Source of the DNA: Gemmatimonadota bacterium | Lineage (GTDB): Bacteria > Gemmatimonadota > Gemmatimonadetes > Longimicrobiales > RSA9 | Length of the DNA stretch: 64,000 nt | Direction of reading: 5' to 3' | NCBI GenBank assembly: GCA_040905425.1 | Contig: JBBDRO010000080.1 | Coordinates: 31,809 to 95,808 of the forward strand | In this document: piece after piece, positions 37,634 to 56,151 of the stretch | Numbering within the stretch: position 1 is the first letter of the stretch | Layout: the number at the start of each line of letters is the position of its first letter | The notes under the pieces: model-generated | The model's database searches: none | Told to the model about the DNA's origin: nothing | Seen by the model: the letters and a program-made list of their open reading frames with translations, nothing else | Made by a program: the position numbers and the translations under genes

Positions 37634-37634
37634 G

Positions 37635-38900
37635 TCAGCGCTCGCTTTCCGACGGCTGCGCGGGGACGGCGGCGGGGAAGACGAGCACGAACGCCGAGCC
37701 CTCACCCACCACGCTCTCCGCGCGGATCGTGCCGCCCATGTTCTCCACGATGCGGGCGCACACGGCCAGCCCCAGGCCGGTGCCCCTGCCCGGCTCCTTG
37801 GTGGTCACGAACGGCTCGAAGATCTGCTCCAGGAGTTCGGCTTCCATGCCCGGCCCGTTGTCCCGCACGATCACCTCCACCACCTGGCCCGTGTCGGCGC
37901 GTGGATCCTTCACCCGGCGCTGCACGGCCGCGGCCAGGCGCCGGCGATGAGAGTAGTCGATGCCCGGCGGGTCGTCCTTGCGGCGCGCGGGGCGATGCTG
38001 CGGCGCGTGGTAGGCCCGCGCGGCGGTCGTGATTTCCAGGTGCCGCTCGGCGGTCTCCTCCAGGGCGTCGGCCGCGTTCACGAAGAGGTTCACGAAGACC
38101 TGCTGCAGCTGATAGGGGTCGCCGGCCACGGGGGGCAGCGTGTGCGCGAAGTTACGCTCTACCTCGAGGCGTGCAAAGCGACCCTGCGTGCTCACCAGTT
38201 CCAGCGTATCCGCCAGCACCGCGTTCACGTCCAATCTCTGTTCGCGCGTCTCGCGCGTTTCGCGCGGGCGGGCGTAGTCCAGCAGGCCGTGCACGATGCG
38301 GTCGATGCGCCGGGCTTCCCGCTCGGCCGCGCTGAGCAGCTCCGCCTGGCGCCCATCGGCGTCCCGCCCCAGCAGGCCGATGTAGCCCAGGATGGCGCCC
38401 AGGGGGTTGCCCACCTCGTGGGCGATCCCCGCCGACAGGCGGCCCACGGAGGCCAGCTTCTCCGAGCGCACCATGGCGTCGCGCGCCTCGGTCAGCATGC
38501 GGTTGGTGTCGTCCAGCGAGCGGATGTTGGCGGCCAGCTCGCGCTGGTCGGAGAGCAGCCGCTCCGCCATGCGGTTCACGGCCGTGCCCAGGCGCTCCAT
38601 CTCCTCCGTCTCCCCGGGCGGCACGCGCCGCTCGTGCTCCCCCGCCGCGATGGCCTCCACCGCCCCGATCATGCCATCCAGCGGCTCCCACAGGCGGCGG
38701 CGCAGGAGGAGGCTGCCGAAGACCGCGAACACCAACACGTCCGCCGCGAGCAGCACGACCACGTAGAGCGTCCAGGCCTCGGGGCTGGCCAGGCGCGGCA
38801 GCATGAAGGTGATCCCGCCGGCCGCCACGAGCAGCGCGCCGGCAAAGACCAGCGCGAAGGCGGTGACCAGCTCCCGGCGCAGCGTCGGGAGCCGCTTCAC
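37635..38900 (-). CDS. Two-TM HAMP sensor histidine kinase
   Basis: Two TMs with a short loop, HAMP, AHEVGNPL, N box, DNGPG, GTGLGL. Confidence 0.92.
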   Translation of the reverse strand: MKRLPTLRRELVTAFALVFAGALLVAAGGITFMLPRLASPEAWTLYVVVLLAADVLVFAVFGSLLLRRRLWEPLDGMIGAVEAIAAGEHERRVPPGETEEMERLGTAVNRMAERLLSDQRELAANIRSLDDTNRMLTEARDAMVRSEKLASVGRLSAGIAHEVGNPLGAILGYIGLLGRDADGRQAELLSAAEREARRIDRIVHGLLDYARPRETRETREQRLDVNAVLADTLELVSTQGRFARLEVERNFAHTLPPVAGDPYQLQQVFVNLFVNAADALEETAERHLEITTAARAYHAPQHRPARRKDDPPGIDYSHRRRLAAAVQRRVKDPRADTGQVVEVIVRDNGPGMEAELLEQIFEPFVTTKEPGRGTGLGLAVCARIVENMGGTIRAESVVGEGSAFVLVFPAAVPAQPSESER

Positions 38901-38904
38901 GGCG

Positions 38905-39306
38905 TCACTGGCAGGCAATGACTCCGGGGGACGTGGCGGGCGCACCGTCCGCCGGATCGGCGTCACCCGTGTAGACCCCGCAGTTGGCGTCGTCGGCGAG
39001 CGAGACGTGCGTGGCCCGGGCGGCGTAGCCGCCGGCGGAGGCGTCGACCACGGTGGCGGTGACCCCGGGGCTGGTGGAGAAGTTGCGCAGCTCGGCCGCG
39101 TCCGCGGCATAGGTTTGATGGAGGCCGTAGTAGGCTTCCTGGTGGGTGGCCAGGTTGCGCAGGTCGTTCTGCATGACGGCGCGGTAGCTGCGGTCCTTGG
39201 CCGCCCAGAAGCGGTTCACGCCCACGGCGGCCAGGATGCCGATGATCACCAGCACCATCAGGAGCTCGATCAGGGTGAAGCCGTCACGCCGCGTGGTCTG
39301 CGTCAT
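38905..39306 (-). CDS. Type IV pilin paralog
   Basis: RDG|FTLIELLMVLVIIGILAA; DLRNLA; C-terminal Cys pair. Confidence 0.9.
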   Translation of the reverse strand: MTQTTRRDGFTLIELLMVLVIIGILAAVGVNRFWAAKDRSYRAVMQNDLRNLATHQEAYYGLHQTYAADAAELRNFSTSPGVTATVVDASAGGYAARATHVSLADDANCGVYTGDADPADGAPATSPGVIACQ

Positions 39307-39394: not shown

Positions 39395-39808
39395 CTACTG
39401 ACCGATGCAGGCGATCACACCTGAGGTGACAGCAGGAGCCTGGATGGCCGCGTCACCCGTGAAATAGCCGCATATCTGCGTGGCTGTCAGCGCGGCGTGG
39501 CTGGCCGTGGCGGACCACCCCGTCTGGCCGGCCGCCGTGACGTCGACGGTCACACCCTGCGAGGGCTGGAAGTCCAGGTTCAAGGTAGTGGGGTCGCCGG
39601 GGCCGGCGTAGTAGAAGGTGTTGTTCGGGTTGCCGAAGTAGAGCTCCTGCTGCGAAACCAGGTTGCGCAGGTCGGAGGTCATGGCCTGGAAATAGGCCTT
39701 TTCGCGCGTCTTGCCGAACTTCGGGATCGCGATGGCGGCCAGGATGCCGATGATCACGATCACGATGAGCAGCTCGATCAGGGTGAAGCCCTTCTGTTGC
39801 TTGAGCAT
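39395..39808 (-). CDS. pilA: Probable major type IVa pilin
   Basis: MLKQQKG|FTLIELLIVIVIIGILAAIAIP; AAGGAG RBS; own sigma-54 promoter and downstream hairpin. Confidence 0.9.
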   Translation of the reverse strand: MLKQQKGFTLIELLIVIVIIGILAAIAIPKFGKTREKAYFQAMTSDLRNLVSQQELYFGNPNNTFYYAGPGDPTTLNLDFQPSQGVTVDVTAAGQTGWSATASHAALTATQICGYFTGDAAIQAPAVTSGVIACIGQ

Positions 39809-39879: not shown

Positions 39880-39895
39880 GCAAGCGGCGTTCCCA
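39880..39895 (-). promoter_or_regulatory. Sigma-54 -24/-12 promoter of pilA
   Basis: Minus strand TGGGAACGCCGCTTGC = GG-N10-GC, ~70 nt before the ATG; CAA-N4-TTG IHF-like site near 39922-39933. Confidence 0.7.
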
Positions 39896-39987: not shown

Positions 39988-41970
39988 TCAGGACGTGGCA
40001 TTTTGCAAGCCTCTCGCAGGATCCGGCACCGCGGACGCCTCGAACAGGCTCCAGCCGCTCGCGGGATCCACGCATGGGTCCGCGGGCCGCTGCTGGCTCT
40101 CCGGGGACGCGTAGCAGCCCTGCCTGACGGCCGTGGCCACGGCCTCCAGATTGGCGCGCGGCGCGGGTTCCTCCGTGGCCGCCATTGCCTGGTCCAGCGC
40201 AGCCAGCGCCGCCTCCGCGTGCCCGGTACGGGCCAGCGCGCGCGCCTCGAAGGCCGCGTAGCGCCAGGGCTCGCCGCCGGGCAGTTGCCGCACGAGGCGC
40301 CAGGCGGCCGCGGCCCGTCCCCACTGGCCGAGCCCCTCGTACGCGCGGGCGCGGAACAGATTGTAGGTCAGCGCGTCGGTGCCGCGCAGGCGCCAGCTCC
40401 GCTCCAGGGCGGCGAGGGCTTCCTCCCAGCGCTCCGCGCCCACGTAGGCAAAGGCCAGCAGGGTCCACGGGCGCCCCACGTACGGATGCTGCTCCGCGGC
40501 GCCGCGCAGGTGGCGGATGGCCTCGTCGTAGTTGCCCTGCCGCGTATGGAAGAGGCCAGCGTCCGAGCGCAGTTGGGAATCGTGCGGCCAGAGCGCCAGT
40601 GCCAGCTGAAAGTGCCCCTCGGCGCGATCCACGAAGCCCCGCCGCTCCATCTCCCACGCCATCATCCACTGGGCGCGGTAGGACTCCGGGTGTTCGTGCG
40701 CCAGGGTCAGGGCCACGTCCATGGTGCTGTGCCACGCCGGATTGCGCTGCACGGTGCGCGCGGCCAGCAGCGCCAGCGCCACGGCCAGCGCGGCCCCCGC
40801 CCACCGCCGGCGCGTCCGGCCCCACCCCCGCTCCACCGCCTCCCAGCCGAAGGCCACCAGGAAGGACACGGCCAGCACGGGGAGGTAGAGGGTGCGCTCC
40901 GCCAGCAGCACGCCGATGGGAAAGAAGAGGTTGGAGACCGTGAGCACGGTGAGGAGGAACCACGCCGCGGGCAGTCCCAGCCGGGGCCGCCAGGGCGTCA
41001 ACGCCGTCAGGGTAACGGCGAGCGCCAGCAGCAGCGCGCCCAGCGCGGCCATCGGCGTCCACGTGAGCGTGGGCAGGATCACGCCGGGCGCGTAGTCCAC
41101 GACCAGATCCGCGGGGAAGAAGAGCAGGCGCACGTACTCCGGCCAGGCGCGGAACGCGCTGAGCAGGCGGGGCCCGGTCTCCTGCAGGTACGGCAGAGCG
41201 GGTGCGGCGTTCACGCCCGTGAGATTGCCCAGCACGCTCACCCGGGCCACCAGGTAGAAGCCCACCAGCAGCGCCATGAGGAGGAGCGGGGCGGACATGG
41301 CGCGCGCGTACGGCGCGACCGAACGCCATCCGGGACGCACCCGGCCGTCGACCACGTCCACAAGCACCAGCAGCGCCGGCAGGATGACGGCGCTCTCCTT
41401 GGCCAGCAGTCCCACGCCGTAGAGCGTCAGTACCGCCGCCCGCCGGCCCCACCCCATGCCCGGCGCCGGGCGCCCGAGGTGGATCAGCAGCGCCCCGAGC
41501 ACGGCACCCGCCGCGATGATCTCCGCTTGCCCCACCACGTTGGCCACCGCCTCCACGTGCACCGGGTGGACCGCGAAGACCAGCGCGCCCAGCCCCGCAG
41601 CCAGCGGGGCCGCGAATCGCCGCAGCAGCAGGAGCGCCAGCACGGAGACGCCGGCGTGCATGAGCGCGCTGACCAGATGGAAGAACCACGGCGCGCCGCC
41701 CGCCACCGCCCACTGCAGCGCGTAGGCAAAGATCGGCACGGGGCGCCACAGCCCCAGTTCGGACCCCATGCTGGGCCAGTAGGGCGTGGTCCAGATGGAG
41801 CGCTGATCGGCCAGGTCGTGCACACGCGTGTTCTGCAGGATGATGAACACGTCATCGAAGGCAAAGCCGTTGGCCACGGCGTTGGCGTAGACCGCCACGG
41901 CCACCAGCGCCACCAGCCACCAGGGCACGCCCGCGCGGCGCAGGCGCGCACGCACGTCTGCCAGCGTCAT
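39988..41970 (-). CDS. TMTC-like GT-C membrane glycosyltransferase with C-terminal TPRs (copy 1)
   Basis: NGFAFDD acidic loop, WRPV, FAVHPVHVEAVANVVG, LLAKE, LLFFPADLVVDY, AERTLYLP, then TPRs. Confidence 0.82.
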   Translation of the reverse strand: MTLADVRARLRRAGVPWWLVALVAVAVYANAVANGFAFDDVFIILQNTRVHDLADQRSIWTTPYWPSMGSELGLWRPVPIFAYALQWAVAGGAPWFFHLVSALMHAGVSVLALLLLRRFAAPLAAGLGALVFAVHPVHVEAVANVVGQAEIIAAGAVLGALLIHLGRPAPGMGWGRRAAVLTLYGVGLLAKESAVILPALLVLVDVVDGRVRPGWRSVAPYARAMSAPLLLMALLVGFYLVARVSVLGNLTGVNAAPALPYLQETGPRLLSAFRAWPEYVRLLFFPADLVVDYAPGVILPTLTWTPMAALGALLLALAVTLTALTPWRPRLGLPAAWFLLTVLTVSNLFFPIGVLLAERTLYLPVLAVSFLVAFGWEAVERGWGRTRRRWAGAALAVALALLAARTVQRNPAWHSTMDVALTLAHEHPESYRAQWMMAWEMERRGFVDRAEGHFQLALALWPHDSQLRSDAGLFHTRQGNYDEAIRHLRGAAEQHPYVGRPWTLLAFAYVGAERWEEALAALERSWRLRGTDALTYNLFRARAYEGLGQWGRAAAAWRLVRQLPGGEPWRYAAFEARALARTGHAEAALAALDQAMAATEEPAPRANLEAVATAVRQGCYASPESQQRPADPCVDPASGWSLFEASAVPDPARGLQNATS

Positions 41971-43724
41971 CGTCCCCCGCCGGTGCCGGCATCCGGCGGT
42001 GCCGCCGGGGCACCCGCTTCGAGCTGGCCCCGCATGTCCAGCAGCAGCGAGTCGGCGGGCGCCAGGCCCAACCCCGCCGCCACCGCGCGCGCCGCGGCGG
42101 CGGTGTCCGCCAGCGCCAGCGCCATGGCGGCCACCACCCGGTGGCCGTCCACCACCTCCGGCCACTGCTCCGTGGCGTGTTCGGCCAGCCGCCGCGCGTA
42201 CTCCAGGCGCCCATGCCGCGCGGCGTAGCCCGCCGCTTCGATCACCAGGCCGGGACGATGCGGCCACAGCGAGATGGCGGCGCCGTACTCGGTGAGCGCC
42301 AGCTCCACGTGCCCCTCCCCGCGCGCGGTGCGGGCAATGTTCCAGTGCGCGCGGAAGTTGTCCGGACGCTCGCGGACCATGGCCGCGAAGAGCGTGGCGT
42401 TGGAGGACCAGACGGGGACCTGCATGACTGTGCGGAGGGCCAGCAGCGTGACCGCCACGGCGAACACGACGGCTCCCGCACGCCGCGCCCGGTCGGGCAG
42501 CCGCAGCACCAGCGCCACCGCTCCCGCCACACCGACGGAGAGCGCCAGCGAGGGCAGGTAGAGCGTGCGCTCCGCCACCACGACGCCGATGGGCACCAGG
42601 AAATTGGTCACGGGCAGCCCCACCACGGGCACCCAGAGCAGCGCGAGCGCCGTGCGCCCCCGCCCGCGCGCCAGGGCGTAGAGCCCCCCGCCCAGCAGGA
42701 TGCCCACGATGAGTGCCCCGGCCGCCACCAGCGGCGTGACCGCGCGCGCGGGATTGATGACGTGCGGGCCGTAGTCCGCCAGCAGGGTGCGCGGCCAGAA
42801 GAACAGGCGCGCCCAGTGCGGCCAGGCCTGCAGCGCGGTGAGGATGCGCTCCGTGGCGCCGCTGGTCACCTCGAGCGCCGGGTCCACACGCGTGGGCGCC
42901 AGCCCATCGAGCACGGCGGCGCGCGCACCCAGATAGGCGCCCAGCACCACGGTCTGCGCGGCGAAGGCCGCCCAGGTGCGGCGCAGGTAGGACAGGGTAT
43001 GGCGCAGCCGCCACCGTCCGGCCGCCGCGTCCAGCAGCACGAGCGCGGCCGGCAGCATGACCGCGCCCTCCTTGGCAAGCAGCGCCAGCAGGTAGAGGGC
43101 GGGCACGAGGAGCAGCCGCGCCGGCCGCTCCAGCCGCGGCGCGCCGTGGCCTACCGTCCGCCGCACGGGCGGGGGCGCGTCCGCGGCGGGTGGCTCGCCC
43201 GTCCGGAGCCAGAGCAGTGCGGCGCCCAGGAAGAGGAGCGCGGCCAGCACCTCCGCCCGGCCGACCACGTTAGCTACCGCCTCCACGTGCACCGGGTGTA
43301 CGGCAAAGACCAGCGCCCCGAGCAGCGCCGGCAGCGGCCGGAAGAGCATGGCAAGCAGCAGGAAGATCAGGGCACACACAGCACCATGGCCCAATAGGTT
43401 CACCAGGTGGAACCAGGCCGGGTTGTCCGGGGCCAGCGCCCAGTCGCGCGCGAAGCTGAGGGTCGTGAGGGGCCGCCACAGCCCCAGGATGTTCTCCCCC
43501 GGCCAGTAGCCGCCCGTGAGGATGCCGCCCAGGTCGAAGGTGTGCACGCGCGGATCGCCCGCCACGATGGCCCGGTCGTCGTACACGAAGCCGTGGGACA
43601 GTGAGGTGGCAAAGACCACCATGCCGGCCAGCGCGGCCACCAGCGCGCCCCAGGCGTGCGGCACCACGGCATCCCCGCCCGGCGGCGAGGCGTGACCGGG
43701 GCCGGGGGCGGCGGGCGCGATCAT
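41967..43724 (-). CDS. TMTC-like GT-C membrane glycosyltransferase with C-terminal TPRs (copy 2)
   Basis: HGFVYDDRAI, WRPL, FAVHPVHVEAVANVVGRAE, LLAKE, LFFWPRTLLADY, AERTLYLP. Confidence 0.82.
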   Translation of the reverse strand: MIAPAAPGPGHASPPGGDAVVPHAWGALVAALAGMVVFATSLSHGFVYDDRAIVAGDPRVHTFDLGGILTGGYWPGENILGLWRPLTTLSFARDWALAPDNPAWFHLVNLLGHGAVCALIFLLLAMLFRPLPALLGALVFAVHPVHVEAVANVVGRAEVLAALLFLGAALLWLRTGEPPAADAPPPVRRTVGHGAPRLERPARLLLVPALYLLALLAKEGAVMLPAALVLLDAAAGRWRLRHTLSYLRRTWAAFAAQTVVLGAYLGARAAVLDGLAPTRVDPALEVTSGATERILTALQAWPHWARLFFWPRTLLADYGPHVINPARAVTPLVAAGALIVGILLGGGLYALARGRGRTALALLWVPVVGLPVTNFLVPIGVVVAERTLYLPSLALSVGVAGAVALVLRLPDRARRAGAVVFAVAVTLLALRTVMQVPVWSSNATLFAAMVRERPDNFRAHWNIARTARGEGHVELALTEYGAAISLWPHRPGLVIEAAGYAARHGRLEYARRLAEHATEQWPEVVDGHRVVAAMALALADTAAAARAVAAGLGLAPADSLLLDMRGQLEAGAPAAPPDAGTGGGR

Positions 43725-43746
43725 GGCCGTGCCTCGCGCGGCGCGC

Positions 43747-45642
43747 TCACGGGGTCCCGCCCGCGAGATGCCGGCGGCGCCAGAGCTCGAAGACCAGCAG
43801 CGTCCAGAGCGGCTTGCGCAGATCCGCGCGCCGGGTGCCGTGGTCGTCCAGCATGCGCGTGACCACCGCGGGCTCGAAGAGGCCGTCCGCGCGGAGCGTG
43901 TCGGGCGCCAGGGTGTCCCGCACGAGCTCGCGCAGCGGCCCGTTCAGCCAGGCCGCCACAGGCATCCCGAACCCCTTCTTGCGCCGGGCCAGGATGGCCG
44001 GCGGCAGGAGGTCCGCCACGGCGTCGCGCAGCATGCGCTTGCCCGTGAGCCGCCGCATCCGGTAGTGGTCGGGGACGCCGAAGGCCAGCTCGACCACCGG
44101 CGGCGCCAGCAGCGGGGCGCGCACCTCCAGCGCCACCCGCATGCTGGCGCGGTCCACCTTGGCCAGGATGTCATCCGGCAGGTAGGTGGTGGCGTCCAGA
44201 TGGGTGGCGCGGGCCAGTGGCGGGGCGCCCTGGCTCTCCCGCCAGTGCCGCTGATACGCGTCAAAGGCATGGGCGCCGCCCCCTGCGGCCGCCAGCGTCT
44301 TCGGGGTAAGCAGCGCTGTCTGGGCCTCGGGCGTGAAGGAGGCCATCCAGCGCGCGTGGTCCGCGGGCGGGGGCGCCCCCGCGCCCGCCAGAAACGTGAG
44401 CGCCTTGAAGGGCAGCGCAAAGTTCGTGTCCGCCACCGGCAGCGCCCCGGCGGCCCGGCGCGCGCCGGCGAGCAGCGGGCCCGGCACATGCCGGAAAAAG
44501 GGCGCCACTCTGCGCGCCTGGTGCATGGGATAGCCCGCGAAGAGCTCGTCCCCGCCGTCCCCGCCCAGCGCCACGGTCACCCGCTCGCGCGCGAAGCGCG
44601 CCAGCAGCGCGGTGGGCAGGATGGAGGCGTCGCCGAGCGGCTCGTCCAGGATGTCCGGCAAGGACGGCACGAGCGCCGGCAGCTCCGCGCCCTCCAGGAT
44701 GCGCTCGTGATGGCGGCTGCCGATGTGCGCGGCCACCGCCCGCGCGTGCGCGCTCTCATCGAAGGAGCGCTCCCGGAAACCGATGCTGAAGGTGTCCACG
44801 GCGCCGGCCCGCGCCGCCAGCGCCGCCACGGTGCTGGAGTCGATGCCACCCGAGAGAAATACGCCGAGCGGCACGTCCGCCACCAGCCGGGAGCGGACCG
44901 CCCCTTCCAGGCGGGTGCGCAGCTCGCGCACCGCGTCCGGATAGGCCGGCACTTCCGGGGACGTCCGCGCATCCAGCCGCCACCATTGTTCGATGCGCGG
45001 CTGACCGTCCTCCAGGATCAGCGCGCTGCCCGGCTCCAGCTTGGCCACCCCGGCCACGATGCAGCCCGGCGAGGGTACGTACTCGTGCGCCAGATAGGCC
45101 GAGAGCGCCGCGGGATCGAGGGTGCGCGGCACGGCGGGGTGCGCGAGCACGGCACTGAGCTCCGAGGCAAAGATCACCATGCCATCCGCCACGGCATGGT
45201 AGAGGGGCTTCTCGCCCATGCGGTCGCGCGCCAGGACCAGCCGGCGCGCCGCGCCGTCCCAGAGCGCCAGGGCGAACATGCCGTCCAGGCGCTCCAGGCA
45301 GCCCAGCCCCCAGGCGTCGTAGGCATGGGCCGCCACCTCGGAGTCGGACCCGGTACGGAAGCGGTGCCCCCGAGCCTCCAGTTCGGCGGCCAGCGCGCGG
45401 AAGTTGTAGATCTCGCCGTTGACCACCGCCATGGTCTCCGGGCGCGCGCCCGCGAGCGGCTGATGGCCCCCCGCCAGGTCGATGACCGAGAGGCGGCGAT
45501 GGCCGAGCACCACGCCCGGCGCCGTGAACGAGCCCTCGTCGTCCGGGCCGCGGTGCGCCACGCAGCGCAGCATGGCGGCCAGGGGGGCGGGGTCCAGGGT
45601 GCGGCGGGGATCCAGCGCCGCGTAGCCGCTTATGCCGCACAC
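43747..45642 (-). CDS. asnB: Asparagine synthase-like glutamine amidotransferase (glycan-cluster type)
   Basis: MCGISG, HRGPD, NGEIYN, LSGGIDSS, GDGGDELFAGY, KVDRASM, KKGF. Confidence 0.92.
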   Translation of the reverse strand: MCGISGYAALDPRRTLDPAPLAAMLRCVAHRGPDDEGSFTAPGVVLGHRRLSVIDLAGGHQPLAGARPETMAVVNGEIYNFRALAAELEARGHRFRTGSDSEVAAHAYDAWGLGCLERLDGMFALALWDGAARRLVLARDRMGEKPLYHAVADGMVIFASELSAVLAHPAVPRTLDPAALSAYLAHEYVPSPGCIVAGVAKLEPGSALILEDGQPRIEQWWRLDARTSPEVPAYPDAVRELRTRLEGAVRSRLVADVPLGVFLSGGIDSSTVAALAARAGAVDTFSIGFRERSFDESAHARAVAAHIGSRHHERILEGAELPALVPSLPDILDEPLGDASILPTALLARFARERVTVALGGDGGDELFAGYPMHQARRVAPFFRHVPGPLLAGARRAAGALPVADTNFALPFKALTFLAGAGAPPPADHARWMASFTPEAQTALLTPKTLAAAGGGAHAFDAYQRHWRESQGAPPLARATHLDATTYLPDDILAKVDRASMRVALEVRAPLLAPPVVELAFGVPDHYRMRRLTGKRMLRDAVADLLPPAILARRKKGFGMPVAAWLNGPLRELVRDTLAPDTLRADGLFEPAVVTRMLDDHGTRRADLRKPLWTLLVFELWRRRHLAGGTP

Positions 45643-45651
45643 GCGCGCGCC

Positions 45652-46683
45652 TCACTCCCCGGCGCCGGGCGTGGCGGCCGCCGCGCCGTCGGACCCCGGC
45701 ACCCGACCGAAGCCGCGCCAGGAGTTGGCGTTGTGGTGCTCGATGGCCACGCCCTCAAGGCCGGCGCGCTCGAACCATGCGGCAAAGTCCTGGCGGCGGA
45801 TGTAGAAGGCCACCGGCGCCACCAGGTGATCGAAGACAATGGAGCGCTGCTCCCGGTAAGGGAAATCAGCAATGTAGGTGAGGTAGGGCGCGTACGGCAG
45901 CGTGGCGTTCAGCCGTGTGCCGCGTGAGGGCCGGTAGAGCAGCCGGGTGCCGAGCCAGAGCGGCACGGTGAGCAGTCCCGCCAGCGCGTCCAGCACGCCG
46001 TAGGGCAGGCGCGAGGTGACGTGCTCCCGCACCGGCGAGACGCCGTGCACGATCCAGCCGTTGCCCTCCCGCCCGTACACCCAGGCGGAGATGGCGCCGC
46101 CGGGCACCAGTCTGCCCACCAGCGCCCGGAAGCCGCGCTCGGGATCGGGCAGGTGGTGCAGGACGCCGATGGAGAAGGCATAGTCGAAGACCCGCCCAAC
46201 GGGCGGCCGGTTGAGGTCCGCCTGCACCACGTGGGCGTTGGCCAGGTGGCGGGTATTGGCGAAGGCCGCATCCACGGCCTGGCTCAGGTCCATGGCCACC
46301 ACGGCGCGCGCGCCGAAGCCGGCGGCCAGCGCCGTGTGCCGGCCCTTGCCGCAGCCCCCCTCCAGGACGGTGCGTCCCTGGAACATCTCCGGCGTGACGG
46401 GCCGCAGCCAGTCCAGGAACTGCTGCCGGTAGCGCGCCGCCAGCTCGGCGTAGCGGGTCCATTCGTAGCCGAACGCCTCGGCGGTCCGGCGCTCCTCCAC
46501 GCCGACCTCCCCCGGCTCCTCCACGAAGCGCGGCACCCCTTCCCGGATGGGAAACGCGCGCGCGCAGCCGGCGCAGGTCAGCGTGCCGGTCATCACGTGC
46601 TCGTCCTCGTGGGCGGCCACCGCCAGCTCCAGCCGGCCACCACATCCGGGACAGGCCAGCAGGTCGAGCGCGCGCTCCCTCAT
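45652..46683 (-). CDS. Trm112-like zinc-ribbon domain fused to a class I SAM methyltransferase
   Basis: LLACPGC...CAGC...FPIREGVPRF, then VLEGGCGKGR and GVLHHLPDP. Confidence 0.85.
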   Translation of the reverse strand: MRERALDLLACPGCGGRLELAVAAHEDEHVMTGTLTCAGCARAFPIREGVPRFVEEPGEVGVEERRTAEAFGYEWTRYAELAARYRQQFLDWLRPVTPEMFQGRTVLEGGCGKGRHTALAAGFGARAVVAMDLSQAVDAAFANTRHLANAHVVQADLNRPPVGRVFDYAFSIGVLHHLPDPERGFRALVGRLVPGGAISAWVYGREGNGWIVHGVSPVREHVTSRLPYGVLDALAGLLTVPLWLGTRLLYRPSRGTRLNATLPYAPYLTYIADFPYREQRSIVFDHLVAPVAFYIRRQDFAAWFERAGLEGVAIEHHNANSWRGFGRVPGSDGAAAATPGAGE

Positions 46684-47624
46684 ACTTCGTCCTCGGCGTG
46701 CCAGAGCGCGTAGGTCCGTTTGTCCTGCGACTCGTAATACGTGCGCACCGTCAGTTCGGCCACCAGCCCCAGCAGGATGGAGAGGAAGCCCACCAGGGCG
46801 AACATCACCGAGACCAGCGGCAGCGGCGTCTGGATGAACGTCTTGGGATCGGCCGCCAGGTACTTGAAGTAGATCATCCAGGCAAAGGCCCCCGCGCTCA
46901 GCACGAGCGAGAGCACGCCGAAGCCACCGAACACGTAGATGGGTTTGGTGGCGTAGGAAGACAGGAACTTCACCACGATGAGGTCGAGCACCACTTTCAG
47001 CGTGCGTTCCATGCCGTAGCTGGACACACCGCGCGTGCGCGGGTGGTGGGTGACGGGCAGTTCGGTCACGCGCGCGCCCTGCCAGCTGGCATAGATGGGG
47101 ACGAAGCGGTGCATCTCCCCGTAGAGGCGCACACCCGCCAGCACGCTGCGGCGGTAGGCCTTGAGTGAGCAGCCGTAGTCGTGCAGCCGGACGCCCGAGA
47201 TCCAGGACACGAGGCGGTTGGCTACCACCGACGGAACCCGCCGGTGAAAGGGGTCCTGCCGATCCACCCGCCAGCCGCTCACCACGTCGTAGCCCTCCTC
47301 CAGGCGCGCCAGCAGGCGGGGAATGTCCCGCGGATCGTTCTGCAGATCACCGTCCATGGGCACGATGATGCGGCCCTGCGCGTGGTCGATCCCCGCGGAC
47401 AACGCGGCGGTCTGCCCGAAGTTGCGCCGCAGGCGCAGCAGCCGCACGCGCTCGTCGGTCTCCGCCAGGGCGCCGAGCACGGCCCAGCTGTCATCCGTGC
47501 TGCCGTCATCCACGAAGATGAACTCGGCCTCGCGGCCGAGCACGTCCGCCAGCCGCCGGTGCAGTTCCGGGAGGTTACCCGCCTCGTTGTAGACGGGCAC
47601 CACGACCGAGATATCGAGCGGCAT
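46680..47624 (-). CDS. GT2 polyprenyl-phosphate glycosyltransferase (ArnC/GtrB-like, two C-terminal TMs)
   Basis: VVPVYNE, VDDGSTD, RNFGQTAA, MDGDLQ, GEMHRF. Confidence 0.92.
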   Translation of the reverse strand: MPLDISVVVPVYNEAGNLPELHRRLADVLGREAEFIFVDDGSTDDSWAVLGALAETDERVRLLRLRRNFGQTAALSAGIDHAQGRIIVPMDGDLQNDPRDIPRLLARLEEGYDVVSGWRVDRQDPFHRRVPSVVANRLVSWISGVRLHDYGCSLKAYRRSVLAGVRLYGEMHRFVPIYASWQGARVTELPVTHHPRTRGVSSYGMERTLKVVLDLIVVKFLSSYATKPIYVFGGFGVLSLVLSAGAFAWMIYFKYLAADPKTFIQTPLPLVSVMFALVGFLSILLGLVAELTVRTYYESQDKRTYALWHAEDEV

Positions 47625-47644
47625 GTCCACCTCCTCGCCGGGTC

Positions 47645-48337
47645 TCATGAGCGGGCCGGCGGCTGCAGGCGCGCCACGTAGCGCACGGGCGCCAGGCGGA
47701 ACGGTACGGAACGCACACGCGCCACGCGCGCGTGGCCCGCGCATACCTTTTCGAGGAGGGCCAGGTCGAAGGCATGCAGGTGCCATTCGTTGCCCTCCCC
47801 CGCCAGGCGACGCAGCGGTCCGCGCAGCAGCCAGAGGCGGCTGAGCACCCGTTTGGTCCGGTCGATGAGTCCCTCGTTGGGTATGGAGACCACCACGCGC
47901 GCGCCCGGGGCGGCCACGCGCATGAGCTCGGCCACCACCGCGCCGGGATCGGGGACGTGCTCCAGCACCTCGGTGCACAGCACCACGTCGAAGGTGCCGC
48001 TGGCAAAGGGCAGCCGATCCGCCGACGCGCGTGCCAGCCGCGCCCCGGGCACGCGGCGCGCGCTGCGCTCAAGCATGACGCTCGACAGGTCGATCCCCCA
48101 GCGCTCCTGGTCGGGGTAGCGCATGAGTACGTGGCCGCCGCCGCAGCCCACCTCCAGCAGGCGCTCCCCGGGCGCCGCCGCGGCCAGCGCATCCAGGGCA
48201 CGCAGCCGCCGTGCCTCCACCCAGCGTACCAGGGGGTGCGCATCGGCGTAGTAGGCGTCGATGTCATAGCGCGCCACCATGGCATCGTTCCAGGCAATCA
48301 CGTCCTCGGGGGGACCGTGCGGCACGGGCTCGTTCAT
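47645..48337 (-). CDS. Class I SAM-dependent methyltransferase
   Basis: LLEVGCGGG, FDVVLCTEVLEHVPDP. Confidence 0.9.
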   Translation of the reverse strand: MNEPVPHGPPEDVIAWNDAMVARYDIDAYYADAHPLVRWVEARRLRALDALAAAAPGERLLEVGCGGGHVLMRYPDQERWGIDLSSVMLERSARRVPGARLARASADRLPFASGTFDVVLCTEVLEHVPDPGAVVAELMRVAAPGARVVVSIPNEGLIDRTKRVLSRLWLLRGPLRRLAGEGNEWHLHAFDLALLEKVCAGHARVARVRSVPFRLAPVRYVARLQPPARS

Positions 48338-49986
48338 GGCAACCTGTACAGGAAGAGCGTGCGCGCCACCACGGCCTCCGGGGCCATGCGCGTAAAACGG
48401 TCGACCAGCGACCCCTCCAGGTACACTGGATGGAGGAGCGAGGCGGACACTACGGCCCACTCCGGTGGCGGCGCCGTGGGATCGGACCCGGGCGGCGCCT
48501 CCAGCGGAAAGAAGCTGGGCAGCGGCACATAGTCGATGCCGTAGCCCTCCGGGAGGGCCGAGCCGAAGTAGCTCAGATAGACGCGCTCGATGCCACGCTC
48601 GGCCATGGTCTCGCGCAGCGCCAGGAGACCCTGCCCCCAGTCCACGCTGGAGTCCACGAAGACCCGGTGTCCCTGGTTTCGAGCCGGCGCGTATTCACTC
48701 ACATAGCTCAGGAACCAGGGGTACCATGAGAGCGTGGACGCCGCGTGGGCCACCACGAGCGCCACCACGAGCACCGCCATGGCACGCCCCCGTGCGCGCC
48801 ACGCCCGCGCGGCCCCCGCCGCGGCCAGGATGCAGAGCAGCGGCAGCACCGGCAGGGCGTGTCGGAAACCGATGGCCAGGTTGGACGTGAGCAGCGCCGC
48901 CGCGAACACGAGCAAGCCCGCGAGGGGTGCGCGTAGCGGGGATTCGAGAAGCGACGCGGCTTCATCACGTACTCCCCCGCTCCGCCGTTCACGCCACCAG
49001 GCCAGCCCGCCCCCGAATGCGGCCACCACCAGCAGAACATGGAAGGCGGCGGGCGTCTTGTACAGGAAGGCCGCGGGGTACCACCACCACCACGAACCGC
49101 GCCGGATCTGGCCGCCGAAATAGGCCGGGATACCGTGGCCCTGTGTGACGTGGCCGAACGTGTGTGCCATACCGCGGAGGAACTCGTCCAGAACGAGATC
49201 CCCCCGATAGGTCAGCACGAGACCGGCGTAGAGCGCCAGCGCACCCGCACCCACAGCCCTGCGAGCCGCGTGGCGCCAGGCCGCGTCACCCCGCCGCCGC
49301 CAGGCCTCCGCGCCCAGCAGGAGCGCAGCCACCGGCCCCAGCACCACCGCGCTCAATTTGATGGACAGCGCAAGCGCCACGGCCAGGCCGGCCAGCACGC
49401 CCCGCCGCTGCGTGGGCCGCCGCACCGCCGCGTCCAGCGCGTAGACCGCGAGCAGGTAGGTGAGCGCCGCCGGCAGGTCGTTGTACGCCACGCCGCCGTG
49501 GGCCACCACGTCGGGGAGAAACGCCACCAGGGCCGCCGCCACAAGCGCGGGCCAGGGGCCCAGCGCAGGCCGCGTCAGGAGAAAGGTGGCCAGCGTAAGG
49601 AGGCCCACCATGAGTACGGCGAGAATGCGTCCGAGGAAGGCGATCCGCTCCGGATCGTTGCCCGTCTTCCAGTAGAATGTCTGGGCATAGTGGTAGCGGT
49701 AGCTCATGGCGGCGCGCTCCGCCTCCGCCATCTGGCTAGCAGACGGCAGCGTGGGCGCCGCGAGCAGATGCACCGGCAGTCCGTAGAGGTACTGCACGAG
49801 CGGCGGGTGCTCGGGGGCCAGGTCCCAGGCGCCGGTGGCGTAGCCGCGCGCGCCGCCCGCCACCATCACGATCTCGTCGAAGGTGGTGGACGTGCGCCGC
49901 GCCGCCAGCAGGGTGGCGGCCATGGAGGTGGCCGCAACGAGCCCCAGCAGCAGGAGCACCCGGCGCGGTGTGGGGACGCTAACCAT
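48334..49986 (-). CDS. GT-C (PMT/ArnT-like) membrane glycosyltransferase
   Basis: STTFDE acidic loop, EHPPL, multiple TMs, DSSVDWGQ. Confidence 0.82.
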   Translation of the reverse strand: MVSVPTPRRVLLLLGLVAATSMAATLLAARRTSTTFDEIVMVAGGARGYATGAWDLAPEHPPLVQYLYGLPVHLLAAPTLPSASQMAEAERAAMSYRYHYAQTFYWKTGNDPERIAFLGRILAVLMVGLLTLATFLLTRPALGPWPALVAAALVAFLPDVVAHGGVAYNDLPAALTYLLAVYALDAAVRRPTQRRGVLAGLAVALALSIKLSAVVLGPVAALLLGAEAWRRRGDAAWRHAARRAVGAGALALYAGLVLTYRGDLVLDEFLRGMAHTFGHVTQGHGIPAYFGGQIRRGSWWWWYPAAFLYKTPAAFHVLLVVAAFGGGLAWWRERRSGGVRDEAASLLESPLRAPLAGLLVFAAALLTSNLAIGFRHALPVLPLLCILAAAGAARAWRARGRAMAVLVVALVVAHAASTLSWYPWFLSYVSEYAPARNQGHRVFVDSSVDWGQGLLALRETMAERGIERVYLSYFGSALPEGYGIDYVPLPSFFPLEAPPGSDPTAPPPEWAVVSASLLHPVYLEGSLVDRFTRMAPEAVVARTLFLYRLP

Positions 49987-52036
49987 CGTCCCCCCAGATA
50001 CGACGCATGCCTTCCGCGTACGGCAGGGGTAGCGGCGCCCCGCGCAGCACCACCCACGGCGTGCGGTGCGGCTCGGCCGCGAGCAGGCGGGCGTTGGCCT
50101 CCCGCCCCAGATCGCGGACCAGCAGGATGCCCCGGCCAGGCAGGCCCGGCGCGTCCCCTCGCCACAGCTGGGACGCCACCTCGATGCCGCCCCCCGCCGC
50201 GAGGTCCGCCGCCGCCTCGCGCGCGCAATCCGCCGTCCACGTCTCCCCCGGAGCGCGGCGCACCACGCTGCCGGGTGCCAGTGCCGCGCGCGGCACGGGC
50301 GGGGCGGCGGGCTCGAAGCGCATCGTAGCGGCACCGGCCTCCCCCACGCTGAGCCGATGCGCCGCGCAGGTGCCGTTGGCGCGCATGGCCGTTTCCACGG
50401 AGTCCAGGCGCATCCCCCCCGCCGCCAGCCGCATGGCCACCCTGCTGCCCCACCCACCGTGGACGAAGACCACCGCGGGCGGCGCCACCTCCAGCGTGGC
50501 CAGCGCCGCGGCCGGCTCCGCATAGGATGCCAGGCGCACGGGGCCCAGCCAGCACACGCCGGCCACCACCCCGCCGCCCAGGAGAACGGCGGTGAAGACC
50601 CGCGGAGACCACCCGGGCAGGCGCGCACTCCGGCGCGGCACGCGGTGCAGCAGCCAGGCGGCCGCGAGTACCGTCATCAGCGCCCACGCCGGGGTTGTTT
50701 CATTCAGCATGCGGGGACCCATGAACAACCCGTGGTGCCAGTACGCCGCCAGGGCCACGAGAGGCACCAGCGCCCAGGCCACCACCAGCCGCTCACCCGG
50801 CGCCAGGCGCGGCGCCAGCAGCAGCCACAGCGCCGGCACGAGCAGGAGCGGCAGGGGCGCCTCCACGAGATGCACGGCGAGCGCGACCAGCTCGGCCGAG
50901 AGATAACCCAGTGCCTCCACGGGCCCGTAGCTGTTGCCCCAGGGGTCCAGGCCGAAGCCCAGACCGGACGCCGGTCCGAGCGCGGCTTCGTAGCCGAAGC
51001 GGGTGGGCGCGCCGAAGAAGTGCGCGTTGTAGGCCGCCACGGCCAGCGCTGCAGGGAGGCCGCCCGCCGCGAACGCGGCCGCCCGGCGCAGGCGTGCCGA
51101 GCCGCCGCCGGGGCCGGTGAGGAGCCAGACGCCCAGCACGCCCGCCAGCGCCACGGCAAAGAGGGGGCGGACGGCGCCGGCGGCGCCCACGGCCAGACCC
51201 GCCGCGAGGGCGCCGCCCGGCCGGTCCCGACCGGCCGCCGCCCACACCGCCAGCGCGCCGAACGCCATGGCGGGGGTGTGGCTCATGTACGCGCCCGCGT
51301 GCGCGATCGCAAACGGCGAGAGCGCCAGGAGCAGGACGGCGGCGCGCACCATGGCCGGCCGCTCGGGCAGGAGGCGAGTGGCCGCGGCCGCCGTGGCCGC
51401 CACCGCCACGGCCAGCAGGAGCGGCCCCACCAGGAACGGGGCGCCCAGGCGGAGCCCCGCCGCCAGCAGCAGTGGGTGGCCAGGGGGGTACTGGGAGACC
51501 CAGCCGGCCGTGGTCGGGAGCGCCTGCTGGAGGTGCCATGCGGGCAGCAGCGGTCCCACGGGGCCGGCCAGCCGACCCTCCGCCAGGAAGCGAGCGTGGA
51601 GGAGCTGCGCCATGCCGTCGATGAGGTTCGGACCGCCGCGCAGGGCCAGCAAGGAAAAGGCCGAGGCGAGCACGCCCGCCAGCACTGCTGCGCCGGTCGT
51701 GAAGAGCCACGCAGGAGGCTCCAGCAGGAGGGCACGGCCGCGTTCCAGGGCCCCATCGAGGCGCTCGGGCGCGAGCAACCGCGCGGCCAGGAGCGCTGGA
51801 ATGGCCAGCAGGAGCGCGCCACTCCAGGCCAGACCCAGGTAGGCATCCGCCATGGCCACCGTTACCGCGCCGGCCTGCCCGGTGGCGTCCGTGGCCAGCA
51901 CCCGGAACACCGGCAGGCAGGCCAGCGCCGCCAGCGCGCCTCCCGTCAGGACGCGCCCCGTACGGGCGGGAGCGCCCCACCCCGCGCGGCTGGAGCGCGC
52001 TCCGGCGGCGGCACCGGATGCATGCACGGCCCTCAC
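49979..52036 (-). CDS. GT-C-like polytopic membrane protein
   Basis: PNLIDGMAQ loop, SQYPPG, MSH, VRP, GPR motifs and many TMs. Start uncertain. Confidence 0.65.
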   Translation of the reverse strand: MRAVHASGAAAGARSSRAGWGAPARTGRVLTGGALAALACLPVFRVLATDATGQAGAVTVAMADAYLGLAWSGALLLAIPALLAARLLAPERLDGALERGRALLLEPPAWLFTTGAAVLAGVLASAFSLLALRGGPNLIDGMAQLLHARFLAEGRLAGPVGPLLPAWHLQQALPTTAGWVSQYPPGHPLLLAAGLRLGAPFLVGPLLLAVAVAATAAAATRLLPERPAMVRAAVLLLALSPFAIAHAGAYMSHTPAMAFGALAVWAAAGRDRPGGALAAGLAVGAAGAVRPLFAVALAGVLGVWLLTGPGGGSARLRRAAAFAAGGLPAALAVAAYNAHFFGAPTRFGYEAALGPASGLGFGLDPWGNSYGPVEALGYLSAELVALAVHLVEAPLPLLLVPALWLLLAPRLAPGERLVVAWALVPLVALAAYWHHGLFMGPRMLNETTPAWALMTVLAAAWLLHRVPRRSARLPGWSPRVFTAVLLGGGVVAGVCWLGPVRLASYAEPAAALATLEVAPPAVVFVHGGWGSRVAMRLAAGGMRLDSVETAMRANGTCAAHRLSVGEAGAATMRFEPAAPPVPRAALAPGSVVRRAPGETWTADCAREAAADLAAGGGIEVASQLWRGDAPGLPGRGILLVRDLGREANARLLAAEPHRTPWVVLRGAPLPLPYAEGMRRIWGDDG

Positions 52037-52046
52037 CCGGGCGCGG

Positions 52047-52844
52047 TCAGGATGACGGCCCCACCGGCGGCAGGGGCGGCCTGCGGTACTCCGGTGACCT
52101 GCCGGCCAGCACGTTGCTCCGGAAGATGTGCCAGAACGCGGCCACGCCATCCTTCCAGTTGATCTTCTTGCCCTCCACGTAGGTGCGCCCGTCGTAGCGG
52201 ATGGGCACCTCGTAGATACGCGCGCGCGACTGGGCCAGGCGGGCGGTCAGTTCGGGCTCGATGCCGAACCGGTCGGCGCTGAGCGGCAGGCTCTTCATCA
52301 GATCGGCCCGCACCATCTTGTAGCACGTCTCCATGTCGGTCAGGTTCAGATCCGTGAACATGTTGGACATGAGCGTGAGCACGCCGTTACCCACGCGGTG
52401 CCAGAAGTAGAGCACCCGGTGGGGCCCGCCCAGGAAGCGGCTGCCGAAGACCGCGTCGGCACGCCCCACGGCAATGGGTTGAATGAGGACGGTCAGATCC
52501 TGTGGATCGTACTCCAGGTCGGCGTCCTGGATGACGATCACGTCCCCGGTGGCCGCCTCGATGCCGCGCCGCACCGCGGCGCCCTTGCCCCGGTTCTCCG
52601 GCTGCAGGATGAGCACGTCCACCGTGCCCTCCCGCTCCAACCGCTCGAGCACGGCACGCGTGCCGTCCGAGGAGCCATCGTCCACGCACACCACCTCCAT
52701 GTTCAGCGCTACGCGGCGCAGGCGCTCGATGGCCACCGCTACCGTGGGTGCCTCGTTGTAGACCGGCATGACCACGCTCAAACGGAGCGCGGCCATGGCT
52801 GCGGCCGCCGTAGCCGCGTCCTCGCGGCGGTAGTCTACAGTCAT
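52047..52844 (-). CDS. GT2 DPM1-like polyprenyl-phosphate sugar synthase (no TM)
   Basis: MPVYNE, VDDGSSDG, NRGKGAA, IQDADLEY, GSRF, DMETCYK, EGKKINWKDG. Confidence 0.9.
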   Translation of the reverse strand: MTVDYRREDAATAAAAMAALRLSVVMPVYNEAPTVAVAIERLRRVALNMEVVCVDDGSSDGTRAVLERLEREGTVDVLILQPENRGKGAAVRRGIEAATGDVIVIQDADLEYDPQDLTVLIQPIAVGRADAVFGSRFLGGPHRVLYFWHRVGNGVLTLMSNMFTDLNLTDMETCYKMVRADLMKSLPLSADRFGIEPELTARLAQSRARIYEVPIRYDGRTYVEGKKINWKDGVAAFWHIFRSNVLAGRSPEYRRPPLPPVGPSS

Positions 52845-54211
52845 CCGTTGCCGATCCCGTAGCGGTTCAGCTTGCGATAGAGCGTCGAGGGGTCGATCCC
52901 CAGGACCTCCGCGGCGCGGGCCTTGTTGCCCTCCTCCGCCTCGAGCACCCACAGGATGTAGGCCCGCTCGATGATTTCCAGCGTGGGGTTCGCCGGCGTG
53001 TTCTCCGTCACCAGCGGCGCGGCAGCCGGCTCGCGCACCCGACCCGGGAGCGCGTCCACGTCGATCACGTCACCGTCCGTGACGATCACAGCTCGTTCGA
53101 GCGCGTTCTCCAGCTCACGCACGTTGCCGGGCCAGTCGTACGCACGCAACAGCGCCATGGCCTCCGGCGTCACCCTCAGCCCCGCTCGGGCGTGGTGCTC
53201 GGCCAGGCGCCCCAGGAAGCGCTCCGCCAGGAGCTGCACATCCTCCTCCCGCTCCCGCAGCGGCGGCAGGTGCAGCGTGATCACGTTCAGCCGGTAGTAG
53301 AGGTCGCTGCGGAAGGTGCCGGCGCGGATCTCGTGGTCCAGGTCCCGGTTGGTGGCGGCAATGATGCGCACATCGATCTGCCGCACCTCGGTGGAACCCA
53401 CCGCCACGATCTCCCGCTCCTGGATGGCGCGCAGCAGCTTCACCTGGAGCTGCGGAGACATCTCCGCCACCTCGTCCAGGAAGAAGGTGCCGCCGCGGGC
53501 CGCTTCCAGCAGCCCCTGCTTGTCACGCACGGCGCCGGTGAAGCTGCCCTTCACGTGGCCGAACAGTTCGGATTCCAGGAGGTTCTCGGGCAGCGCGCCG
53601 CAGTTGATGGACACGTACGGCCCGTCCTCCCGCTCGGAGAGCCGGTGGATGTAGCGCGCCAGCACCTCCTTACCCGTGCCGCTCTCCCCCGTGATGAGCA
53701 CCGTGGAGTCGGTGGGTGCCACCATCTCCGCCAGCTGGAGGACGTCCACGAAGGTGCGGCTGGTGCCCGTGGGCCGACCGGCCGCCGCGGGGTCCCGGCG
53801 CCGGATCTCCTTCTTGAGCGCCCGGTTCTCCCGGGACAGGATCCGGGTTTCGGCCGCGCGACGCAGCAACGTGACCAGCTCGGCGTTGGAGAAAGGCTTC
53901 TGGAGGTAGTAATAAGCGCCCTCGTTGACCGCGTTCACCGCCGACTGCAGCGACGCCTGCGCCGTCATGAGGATGACCGGCGTCTCGGGATCCCGCTCCC
54001 GCACGGCGGTGAGCACCTCGATACCGCTCACGTGGGGCATGCGGATGTCCGTGAGGACGATGTCGGGCGCCTCCTCGTCCAGCCTGTCGATGGCCTCCCG
54101 CGCGTCGTGGTAGCCCACGGCCTGGAAGCCCTCACCGCGCAGCAGGATCTCCACGGTGTCCAGAATGGCGCGCTCGTCATCGATGATGAGCACCTTCGGC
54201 TTGCCACTCAT
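52841..54211 (-). CDS. PilR-like sigma-54 response regulator
   Basis: REC with TDIRMP, GSFTGA AAA domain, HTH; coupled to a PilS-like kinase. Confidence 0.9.
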   Translation of the reverse strand: MSGKPKVLIIDDERAILDTVEILLRGEGFQAVGYHDAREAIDRLDEEAPDIVLTDIRMPHVSGIEVLTAVRERDPETPVILMTAQASLQSAVNAVNEGAYYYLQKPFSNAELVTLLRRAAETRILSRENRALKKEIRRRDPAAAGRPTGTSRTFVDVLQLAEMVAPTDSTVLITGESGTGKEVLARYIHRLSEREDGPYVSINCGALPENLLESELFGHVKGSFTGAVRDKQGLLEAARGGTFFLDEVAEMSPQLQVKLLRAIQEREIVAVGSTEVRQIDVRIIAATNRDLDHEIRAGTFRSDLYYRLNVITLHLPPLREREEDVQLLAERFLGRLAEHHARAGLRVTPEAMALLRAYDWPGNVRELENALERAVIVTDGDVIDVDALPGRVREPAAAPLVTENTPANPTLEIIERAYILWVLEAEEGNKARAAEVLGIDPSTLYRKLNRYGIGNG

Positions 54212-56092: not shown

Positions 56093-56151
56093 GCCCGGGA
56101 CTTTCCGCCCAGCACATGATCGATGACCCGGTACCCTTCCAGGGGGAACGC

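Follow-up and report, generated by a model that had tools for sequence, protein, structure and literature searches.

A Gemmatimonadota gene cassette with TMTC homologues next to pilA: a proposed TfpW-type system of pilin O-glycosylation

TfpW of Pseudomonas aeruginosa/paraeruginosa group IV pilin strains (Pa5196, PA7) is a 646-residue glycosyltransferase of the GT-C fold class, with 11 transmembrane segments, a DDX motif and a tail of tetratricopeptide repeats (TPR); its gene lies beside pilA, its acceptors are Ser/Thr residues, no flippase is identified for it, and both the protein and its DDX motif are required for pilin glycosylation (bioRxiv 10.1101/2020.04.19.049825). Animal TMTC1-4, likewise TPR-tailed GT-C proteins, modify the β-strands of Ig-like domains, according to PMC11292533; PMC7801869 defines seven TMTC motifs (M1 to M7) and already mentions prokaryotic homologues. 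Here we describe, in a 64,000-nucleotide stretch of a Gemmatimonadota genome (assembly GCA_040905425.1, contig JBBDRO010000080.1; hereafter the window, to which plain coordinates refer), nine minus-strand open reading frames (ORFs) that fill the interval between pilR (52841-54211, -) and pilA (39395-39808, -). They encode two TMTC homologues (TM1, TM2), two other GT-C proteins (GTC1, GTC2), two predicted polyprenyl-phosphate sugar synthases of family GT2 (GT2a, GT2b), the methyltransferases MT1 and MT2, and an AsnB-family amidotransferase. We read these genes, at a probability of roughly 0.6, as a TfpW-type pilin O-glycosylation cassette built on TMTC homologues, in which sugars would be transferred in the periplasm from polyprenyl-phosphate carriers and a second, probably amidated sugar would be an add-on of the lineage.

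Judged by sequence, TM1 and TM2 are true TMTC homologues, which does not imply that mannose is the sugar they transfer. TM2 (39988-41970, -), the core gene adjoining pilA and the proposed initiating transferase, joins the GT-C domain to a TPR domain (TPR_19 above cut-off); its paralogue TM1 (41967-43724, -), which follows AsnB, is 40% identical to it and has a short TPR tail that Pfam does not match and NCBIfam matches only weakly (E 2e-5). Profile A3, built from 80 domains without the TPR part, matches insect TMTC1, TMTC2-like and Tmtc3 proteins at 215-277 bits, and in pairwise alignment with insect Tmtc3, the TPR excluded, TM2 is 31% identical over 440 columns and TM1 30% over 417 (E values to insect TMTC proteins of 6e-35 and 5e-30 in the TM2 and TM1 comparisons). 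The animal motifs DD, [YW]RP, HPxHxE, KE, D[YW] and ERxxY stand in register. Across 82 domains the DD of M1 (FVYDD in the first loop of TM1, FAFDD in that of TM2), the KE of M4 and the ER of M7 are invariant, as are D39, D40, R76, P77, E140, K191, E192, Y293, E358 and R359; the full ERxxY of M7 is present in TM1, TM2 and 49 of the 82. The DW of M5 reads DY (D in 71/82), while three motifs have diverged further: SHKSYRP of M2 is reduced to [WY]RP, its SHKS, a modelled mannose contact, being replaced; RxD of M3 is RxE in TM1 and QxE in TM2; and PxxP of M6 is absent, with one Pro or none. The bacterial proteins differ also in a shorter TPR array, in a host without cadherins and in lacking a match to Pfam PF08409 (TMTC_DUF1736), whether at E 0.05 or E 10; the loop nevertheless aligns with that of insect TMTCs. 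The TPR tail is shared, and a DPM1-like gene adjoins the bacterial ones. A preliminary description of the window, made from its letters alone, had called the two proteins TMTC-like and named the DUF1736 domain as a check: the kinship is borne out by the TPR-free profile and the pairwise identities, and the Pfam match is missing.

The predicted fold points in the same direction. In the TM2 model (pLDDT 92) the GT-C match spans residues about 7-428, the best relatives being AglB (Z 19.7, root-mean-square deviation (rmsd) 4.3, 325 residues aligned), Pmt2 (Z 18.4), STT3 (18.2), ALG12 (18.0) and ArnT (17.8), with TPR proteins interleaved among the matches for the C-terminal part. This result came from the wider structure search; Foldseek with the whole TM2 model returned TPR proteins only. 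Sequence searches of solved structures likewise gave TPR matches only for TM2 and, for the TPR-free profile, one chain at E 0.51 and nothing relevant; no TMTC structure was among the matches in the solved-structure searches. A simple hydropathy scan of the two TM proteins finds 9 and 10 segments against the eleven helices of TMTCs. The ESM Atlas places a eukaryotic DUF1736 cluster at a feature score of 0.92; it also lists a bacterial cluster in which 28% carry DUF1736, at a TM value of 0.88. Named homologues belong to Gemmatimonadota, mostly Longimicrobiales, and many matches carry the JGI name 'protein O-mannosyl-transferase'. A quick tree of 41 rows separates the TM1-type and TM2-type proteins of the family into clades of their own (SH-aLRT 99 and 100) and puts the insect proteins outside the Gemmatimonadota set, on a sampling too thin for claims of origin.

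Comparison across the phylum distinguishes two layers: a phylum-wide core of GT2a, a TMTC-like gene and pilA, and an accessory block, mostly confined to the family, that comprises the ArnC-like GT2b, AsnB, the methyltransferases, one further GT-C gene and the second TM paralogue. The TM domain occurs in 149 of 301 phylum genomes, the window's own included. Regions of 20 kb were taken from 59 of the 148 other positive genomes among the matches listed, as the best match of each plus the second place in genome G322, some low-ranking or contig-edge matches being left out; the resulting counts are not independent, since the genomes are kin. A pilin is found in 48/60 such regions and lies within 1.5 kb of the TM domain in 45/60, which supports, across genomes, the linkage to pilA supposed earlier. 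GT2a is present in 38 regions and pilR in 36; GTC1 occurs in 15, and a single region has any accessory gene. An overlapping set with 6-kb flanks has a pilin in 57/73 and GT2a in 48/73, and minimal loci consisting of GT2a, TM and pilA occur in G004 and in genus g28. In the family-level loci a gene of the TM type invariably closes the series ahead of pilA, whatever stands in the middle, and a TM1-type gene comes next after AsnB in 15 of the 17 relatives with a visible next gene (exceptions: G013, a contig-end fragment, and G355). The nine genes thus do not form the one fixed cassette that had been supposed, the core being phylum-wide and the block family-level and also found away from pili.

The middle of the cassette varies. 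Different glycan genes occupy the slot in G007, G011 and G024, with many GT2s and RmlD, and in G007 and G011 also Wzx, GT4 and DegT. In G026 (L275:1420-5000) an unrelated PMT_2-type GT-C sits between GT2a and the pilins; occupying the TM position, it fits the link between GT2a, GT-C and pilin. As separate observations, three cassettes with large glycan sets (L041:4811-6727, L050:1941-3743, L052:15907-17799) carry at or near their TM end another GT-C family, with an FDE/YDE loop and 43-49% mutual identity, and in G028 (L271:7221-13007) GT2a lies by the pilins together with a methyltransferase and six tandem pilins.

The two predicted donor synthases are of different types. GT2a (52047-52844, -; PF00535, 121 bits) is DPM1-like and belongs to the core, its best solved relative being an archaeal Dol-P-Man synthase (5mlz, 66.6 bits). 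GT2b (46680-47648, -), an accessory protein with two C-terminal helices, is of the ArnC/GtrB type: the best solved relatives are ArnC (185 bits) and GtrB sll0501 (112 bits), and it stays below the ArnC equivalog cut-off (188 bits against 529). Its orthologues occur in 21 of 73 family genomes and in 4 of the 301-genome phylum sample. Rhamnose was considered as the GT2a donor and dropped: RmlD follows GT2a in seven relatives (directly, in L037, L052, L272, L301, L302, L303 and L311), but the genome has no homologue of RmlD, RmlA or RmlC. In G007 (L049), the genes after the pilin are rmlA, C and B and a YfhO-like one.

Within the accessory block, GT2b and AsnB travel together in the family. AsnB (43747-45642, -; PF00733 Asn_synthase, GATase_7) has the N-terminal Cys and an SGGIDSS motif; it passes TIGR01536 (447 against a cut-off of 267), and its best NCBIfam match, TIGR03108, falls below cut-off (575 bits against 817). 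Members of the latter family, WbpS, WbqG and PGN_1234, are tied to uronamide formation in PMC7468200; AsnB shares with them the fold, the catalytic N-terminal Cys and a glycan-locus context, and differs in the sub-threshold score and in the lack of Wbp sugar-pathway genes in the cassette. From these features, AsnB probably converts a uronic acid to a uronamide. MT1 (47645-48337, -; PF08241 Methyltransf_11, 70.7 bits) is a class I S-adenosylmethionine (SAM) methyltransferase, and MT2 (45652-46683, -; PF03966, PF08241) fuses a Trm112-like four-cysteine domain to a SAM methyltransferase. Either can be absent: MT1 is missing from the otherwise same cassette in G002, G339, G334, G335 and G347, and MT2 from that of G022 and G368; MT2 is found in 2 of 301 phylum genomes. 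AsnB, MT1 and MT2 have no hydrophobic segment, so their steps would be cytoplasmic. What had been pictured as stepwise periplasmic synthesis of a methylated and amidated glycan is supported as regards the GT-C fold and, as worded, unsupported as regards the modifying enzymes, which have no hydrophobic segment and of which either methyltransferase can be absent.

GTC1 and GTC2 had been expected to match PMT_2 or ArnT, and this holds by domain for one and by fold for the other. GTC2 (48334-49986, -) is an accessory PMT_2/ArnT-type GT-C (PF13231, 40.7 bits; PF02366, 35.8 bits) and the only PMT_2 match in the genome, with a TFDE loop that is kept in 10 orthologues. GTC1 (49979-52027, -), an optional protein without TPR that is met in several families, has no Pfam match; its model (pLDDT 94) resembles ALG12 (Z 22.8, rmsd 4.6, 404 aligned), ArnT (22.7), AglB (21.1) and Pmt2 (20.7), against 7.5 for unrelated rows, and its D137 is invariant in 114 sequences. 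The GT-C fold, whose absence would have spoken against the preliminary assignment, is thus found in the models of both TM2 and GTC1. A singleton protein of 1208 residues, P0361, combines GTC1 and a TM1-type domain in one chain (47% and 45% identity); it forms a one-member cluster and may reflect stop-loss or a sequence error, as the loci examined hold no further GTC1-TM fusion.

Set against the described systems, the cassette appears to work like that of TfpW, a likeness drawn from the published description. Common to both are a protein of about 650 residues (660 in TM2), DD in the first periplasmic loop, a C-terminal TPR, a pilA neighbour, a polyprenyl-monophosphate sugar donor (predicted for the cassette) and no identified flippase. 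They differ in that tfpW lies downstream of pilA whereas the present genes lie upstream, behind pilS-pilR; that two TM paralogues and two other GT-C proteins are present here; and that the arabinose route from phosphoribosyl pyrophosphate (PRPP) through DprE1/DprE2 is replaced by GT2 donor synthases. No D-Araf route (DPPR synthase, DprE1, DprE2) occurs among the nine genes, to which that search was confined. The Y-x6-PF-x7-P motif of periplasmic loop 4 in TfpW is found in 1/82 domains and in neither TM1 nor TM2; an EmbC-type Y-x6-P-x5-P motif, present in both, was dropped as a signature, as it occurs in only 5/82 domains and about 5% of shuffles. A genome scan aimed at TfpW gave matches only in Gemmatimonadota and one further bacterium, and plasmids gave none. 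With TfpW on record as a TPR-tailed DDX GT-C beside pilA in bacteria, calling the pathway 'eukaryote-like', as had been done, overstates its novelty. From the three-component systems (GtrABC, ArnC/E/F/T, RgtE/RgtD; PMC11127046, PMC7663294) it takes the pairing of a GT2 polyprenyl-phosphate synthase with a GT-C, and it departs from them in its four GT-C proteins and two synthases and in lacking both a cassette-encoded flippase and any GtrA in the genome; moreover, the acceptors known for those systems are O-antigen or lipid A rather than pilin. The aminoarabinose pathway of ArnC/ArnT is set apart by the sub-threshold score of GT2b and by the lack of arnA, B, D, E and F in the cassette. A PglL/TfpO system is set apart by a Pfam search that finds no Wzy_C-type ligase, Wzx or initiating phosphoglycosyltransferase among the nine genes, in agreement with the preliminary description. 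Elsewhere in the genome, other contigs carry two Wzy_C and two Bac_transf genes, and Wzx lies within the equivalent slot in two relatives. A separate polysaccharide locus at G000:C24:16187-30580 has Wzy_C, glycosyltransferase-like genes and an initiating phosphoglycosyltransferase. Our literature search, with subscription papers mostly outside its coverage, found no account of TMTC activity in bacteria or of the locus described here, and only the TfpW preprint on a bacterial TMTC-pilin link.

We propose the following course of reaction. GT2a would transfer a sugar from its nucleotide donor to undecaprenyl phosphate at the cytoplasmic face, as its family suggests, and the lipid-linked sugar would cross the membrane by means other than a cassette-encoded flippase, there being none. 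TM2, by its fold, motifs and position, is then the likely enzyme to move the sugar to Ser/Thr of the membrane-anchored pilin in the periplasm, with the TPR domain recruiting the acceptor. More tentatively, GT2b may charge the lipid carrier with another sugar, probably a uronic acid, which AsnB would amidate and MT1 and MT2 might methylate in the cytoplasm; TM1, GTC2 and GTC1 could add this second sugar at further sites or extend the first.

The arrangement of the locus is compatible with an operon. The junctions from pilS to TM2 measure, in order, -4, -4, +19, -8, -4, -4, -4, +9, +22 and -4 bases, so that 5 of the 8 within the nine genes overlap; every ORF has a single stop codon, and GC3 is 0.86-0.93. 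The co-oriented, tightly packed set noted earlier is thus real and intact, and its gene labels are upheld by Pfam, fold and structure relatives, save for DUF1736; the starts required correction, TM2 beginning at 41970 (660 aa) and not at the open-frame start 43014, GTC1 near 52027 and GTC2 near 49986. First in the probable operon is pilS (54208-55845, -; PF25323 6TM_PilS, HisKA, HATPase), a PilS-like sensor kinase overlapping by 4 bases pilR, a PilR-like sigma-54 response regulator (Response_reg, Sigma54_activat, HTH_8) that in turn overlaps GT2a by 4 bases. A gap of 179 bases separates the TM2 end from pilA and contains a predicted sigma-54-type -24/-12 site (39880-39894, -; GG-N10-GC) 71 bases 5' of the pilA start, which agrees at 9/11 positions with the consensus (3% of shuffles reach this); comparable sites occur, at a distance of 44-78 bases, in 12 of 15 upstream regions, the window's own included. 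A scan for sigma-70 promoters and terminators gave nothing above chance. From the junction distances and this site, the cassette is probably the distal end of a pilS-pilR operon, co-transcribed with it, with pilA served by its own sigma-54 promoter.

The proposed acceptor, pilA, encodes a probable major type IV pilin (N_methyl; PilA_Myxo as best NCBIfam match, below cut-off), and pilA2 (38905-39306, -; N_methyl, ComP_DUS) a second major-type pilin and possible acceptor, tandem pilins being common among relatives. S76 is nearly invariant among 92 pilins. In genus g28 the Ser/Thr fractions do not overlap (0.216-0.247 in 5 TM-positive and 0.186-0.206 in 4 TM-negative cases); elsewhere they are equal or reversed. 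A predicted complex of TM2 with pilA scored 0.00 in a run that had no controls.

A number of observations weigh against the proposed reading and have to be set beside the foregoing. The cassette lies upstream of pilA and apparently off its transcript, unlike tfpW. Pilins beside TM are only slightly richer in Ser/Thr, at 0.221 (n=97) against 0.185 (n=22); the two encoded in the window have low fractions (0.176, 0.146), and one from a TM-negative genome ranks near the top (0.302). The GtrA flippase (PF04138) has no match in the genome, which is 96.7% complete, nor in the cassette, and two PF03706 genes elsewhere are flippase candidates only. A pilin is missing from 12/60 TM regions. Thirty genomes were picked as TM-negative, and the profile confirmed absence except for a 111-residue remnant in G027 and a weak match in G037. 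Pilins are present in 25 and GT2a in 19 of them, and in 7 GT2a stands directly beside pilA without TM. None of these 7 has GTC1, and among the 5 tested for PMT_2, two (G029 and G158) have none, so that both lack either substitute. The GT2a tree implies at least 3, probably 5, separate label changes for the 7. Adjacency to pilA is therefore no proof of a working pathway, as GT2a persists there without the transferase. Such loci may represent stepwise decay, as suggested by G027 (L061:10089-10424), a single-contig genome in which the N-terminal TM remnant lies between an intact GT2a and the pilin and marks a recent deletion. Finally, a GT-C-GT2b-AsnB block without pilin exists in three genomes of another family, G044 (L268:2880-8298, among Wzm, Wzt and Wzx genes), G063 (L314:7771-14326) and G238 (L315:6010-10539); its GT-C is a 518-residue PMT_2 protein with no BLAST similarity to GTC2, and the block sometimes includes MT2. 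The G238 block lies beside a large Big_2 protein.

Regarding the acceptor, these points bear on three other explanations. One is a broader protein O-glycosylation, in which the TMTC-like enzymes act on β-strand Ser/Thr of Ig-like surface lipoproteins and pilus-associated proteins, and pilin is one acceptor or a mere neighbour. It would agree with the Ig-like β-strand acceptors of animal TMTCs (PMC11292533), with TM1 and TM2 being the sole TM-family genes of the genome and with the TM regions that have no pilin. It would also have a possible acceptor at hand directly after pilQ, in a 1406-residue Ig-domain protein (20509-24729, -) with a Big_7 match and a lipobox-like LGAC. With 18.6% Ser/Thr this protein stands at the 99.5th percentile among the 3269 proteins called, though several other secreted ones exceed it; it has homologues at the equivalent locus in five relatives and could be an adhesin or an acceptor other than pilin. 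Yet TM keeps within 1.5 kb of a pilin in three quarters of the regions and invariably precedes pilA in the family loci, and the characterised bacterial enzyme of the same architecture, TfpW, acts on pilin (bioRxiv 10.1101/2020.04.19.049825). We consider this broader role unlikely, although it is the strongest competitor.

Less probable again is a division of labour within one operon, in which the core would serve pilin, and GT2b, AsnB, both methyltransferases and either GTC2 or GTC1 would decorate lipid A, lipopolysaccharide core or a surface polysaccharide in the manner of ArnC/ArnT or RgtE/RgtD. The ArnC-like GT2b, the tie between ALG12 and ArnT in the GTC1 fold, the PMT_2 identity of GTC2, the pilin-free blocks and the glycan-rich slots of G007, G011 and G024 (GT2s with RmlD and/or Wzx, GT4, DegT) can all be read in this sense, and a GT2 and GT-C pair that adds galacturonic acid to lipid A is known (PMC7663294). 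Against it, the stand-alone blocks use a different GT-C, the family block lies between GT2a and TM2 with the TM1 paralogue next in line in 15/17 relatives, P0361, a single sequence, unites GTC1 with a TM1-type domain, and the remaining arn genes are missing from the cassette. A non-protein envelope glycan, or TM proteins serving as non-catalytic helpers of pilus assembly with a merely positional link to pilA, we regard as highly improbable: GT2a without TM beside pilA in 7 genomes and the persistence of pilins in 25/30 TM-negative ones would be accommodated, but the acidic and basic residues modelled as TMTC ligand sites (PMC7801869) are invariant, and the closest named homologues are protein O-mannosyltransferases.

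The TfpW-type reading of the cassette bears on TMTC biochemistry. New in this window are a direct link by sequence to animal TMTCs, an anatomy of core and accessory layers, the inheritance of TM1 and AsnB as a pair and a set of natural losses; systems of this kind are already known, which limits the surprise. Acceptor recognition by TMTCs (folded or unfolded strand, role of the TPR) is stated as an open question in PMC11292533, and the three-gene set of GT2a, TM and pilA, with a small acceptor next door, would make it testable in a laboratory strain. If the reading is true, roughly one in two of the Gemmatimonadota genomes searched would have sugar-coated pili. Pilin glycosylation protects Pseudomonas against pilus-binding phages (bioRxiv 10.1101/150227), and the variable cassette middle together with the repeated loss of TM would fit selection by such phages. 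It is a speculative extension, which we think improbable in its entirety, that bacterial TMTC homologues, TfpW being one branch, constitute a widespread family for O-glycosylation of pilins and β-strands that shares its origin with animal cadherin O-mannosylation; in this lineage two paralogues, both stably retained, would then share the task, TM2 placing the first, GT2a-derived sugar and TM1 the amidated or methylated GT2b sugar, and GTC1 and GTC2 would lengthen the glycan in the periplasm by single lipid-linked sugars, no oligosaccharide being assembled beforehand.

Beyond pilA, the downstream genes are the second pilin, a second kinase-regulator pair, minor pilins, pilM and the secretin. 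The second pair, a sensor kinase and a sigma-54 regulator (36272-38900, -), lies directly 3' of the pilins and is kept in most relatives, so that cassette and pilins are flanked by two such pairs. Two tandem sets of minor-pilin-like genes precede pilM (30193-36190, -). At G000:C78:88512-89747 the genome has two tandem secreted proteins of 166 residues with identical first 50 residues and its highest Ser/Thr content (24.7%). Divergent from pilS, a fusion protein with peptidase-like, PD40 propeller and Omp85 parts (55969-59229, +) keeps its position in many relatives.

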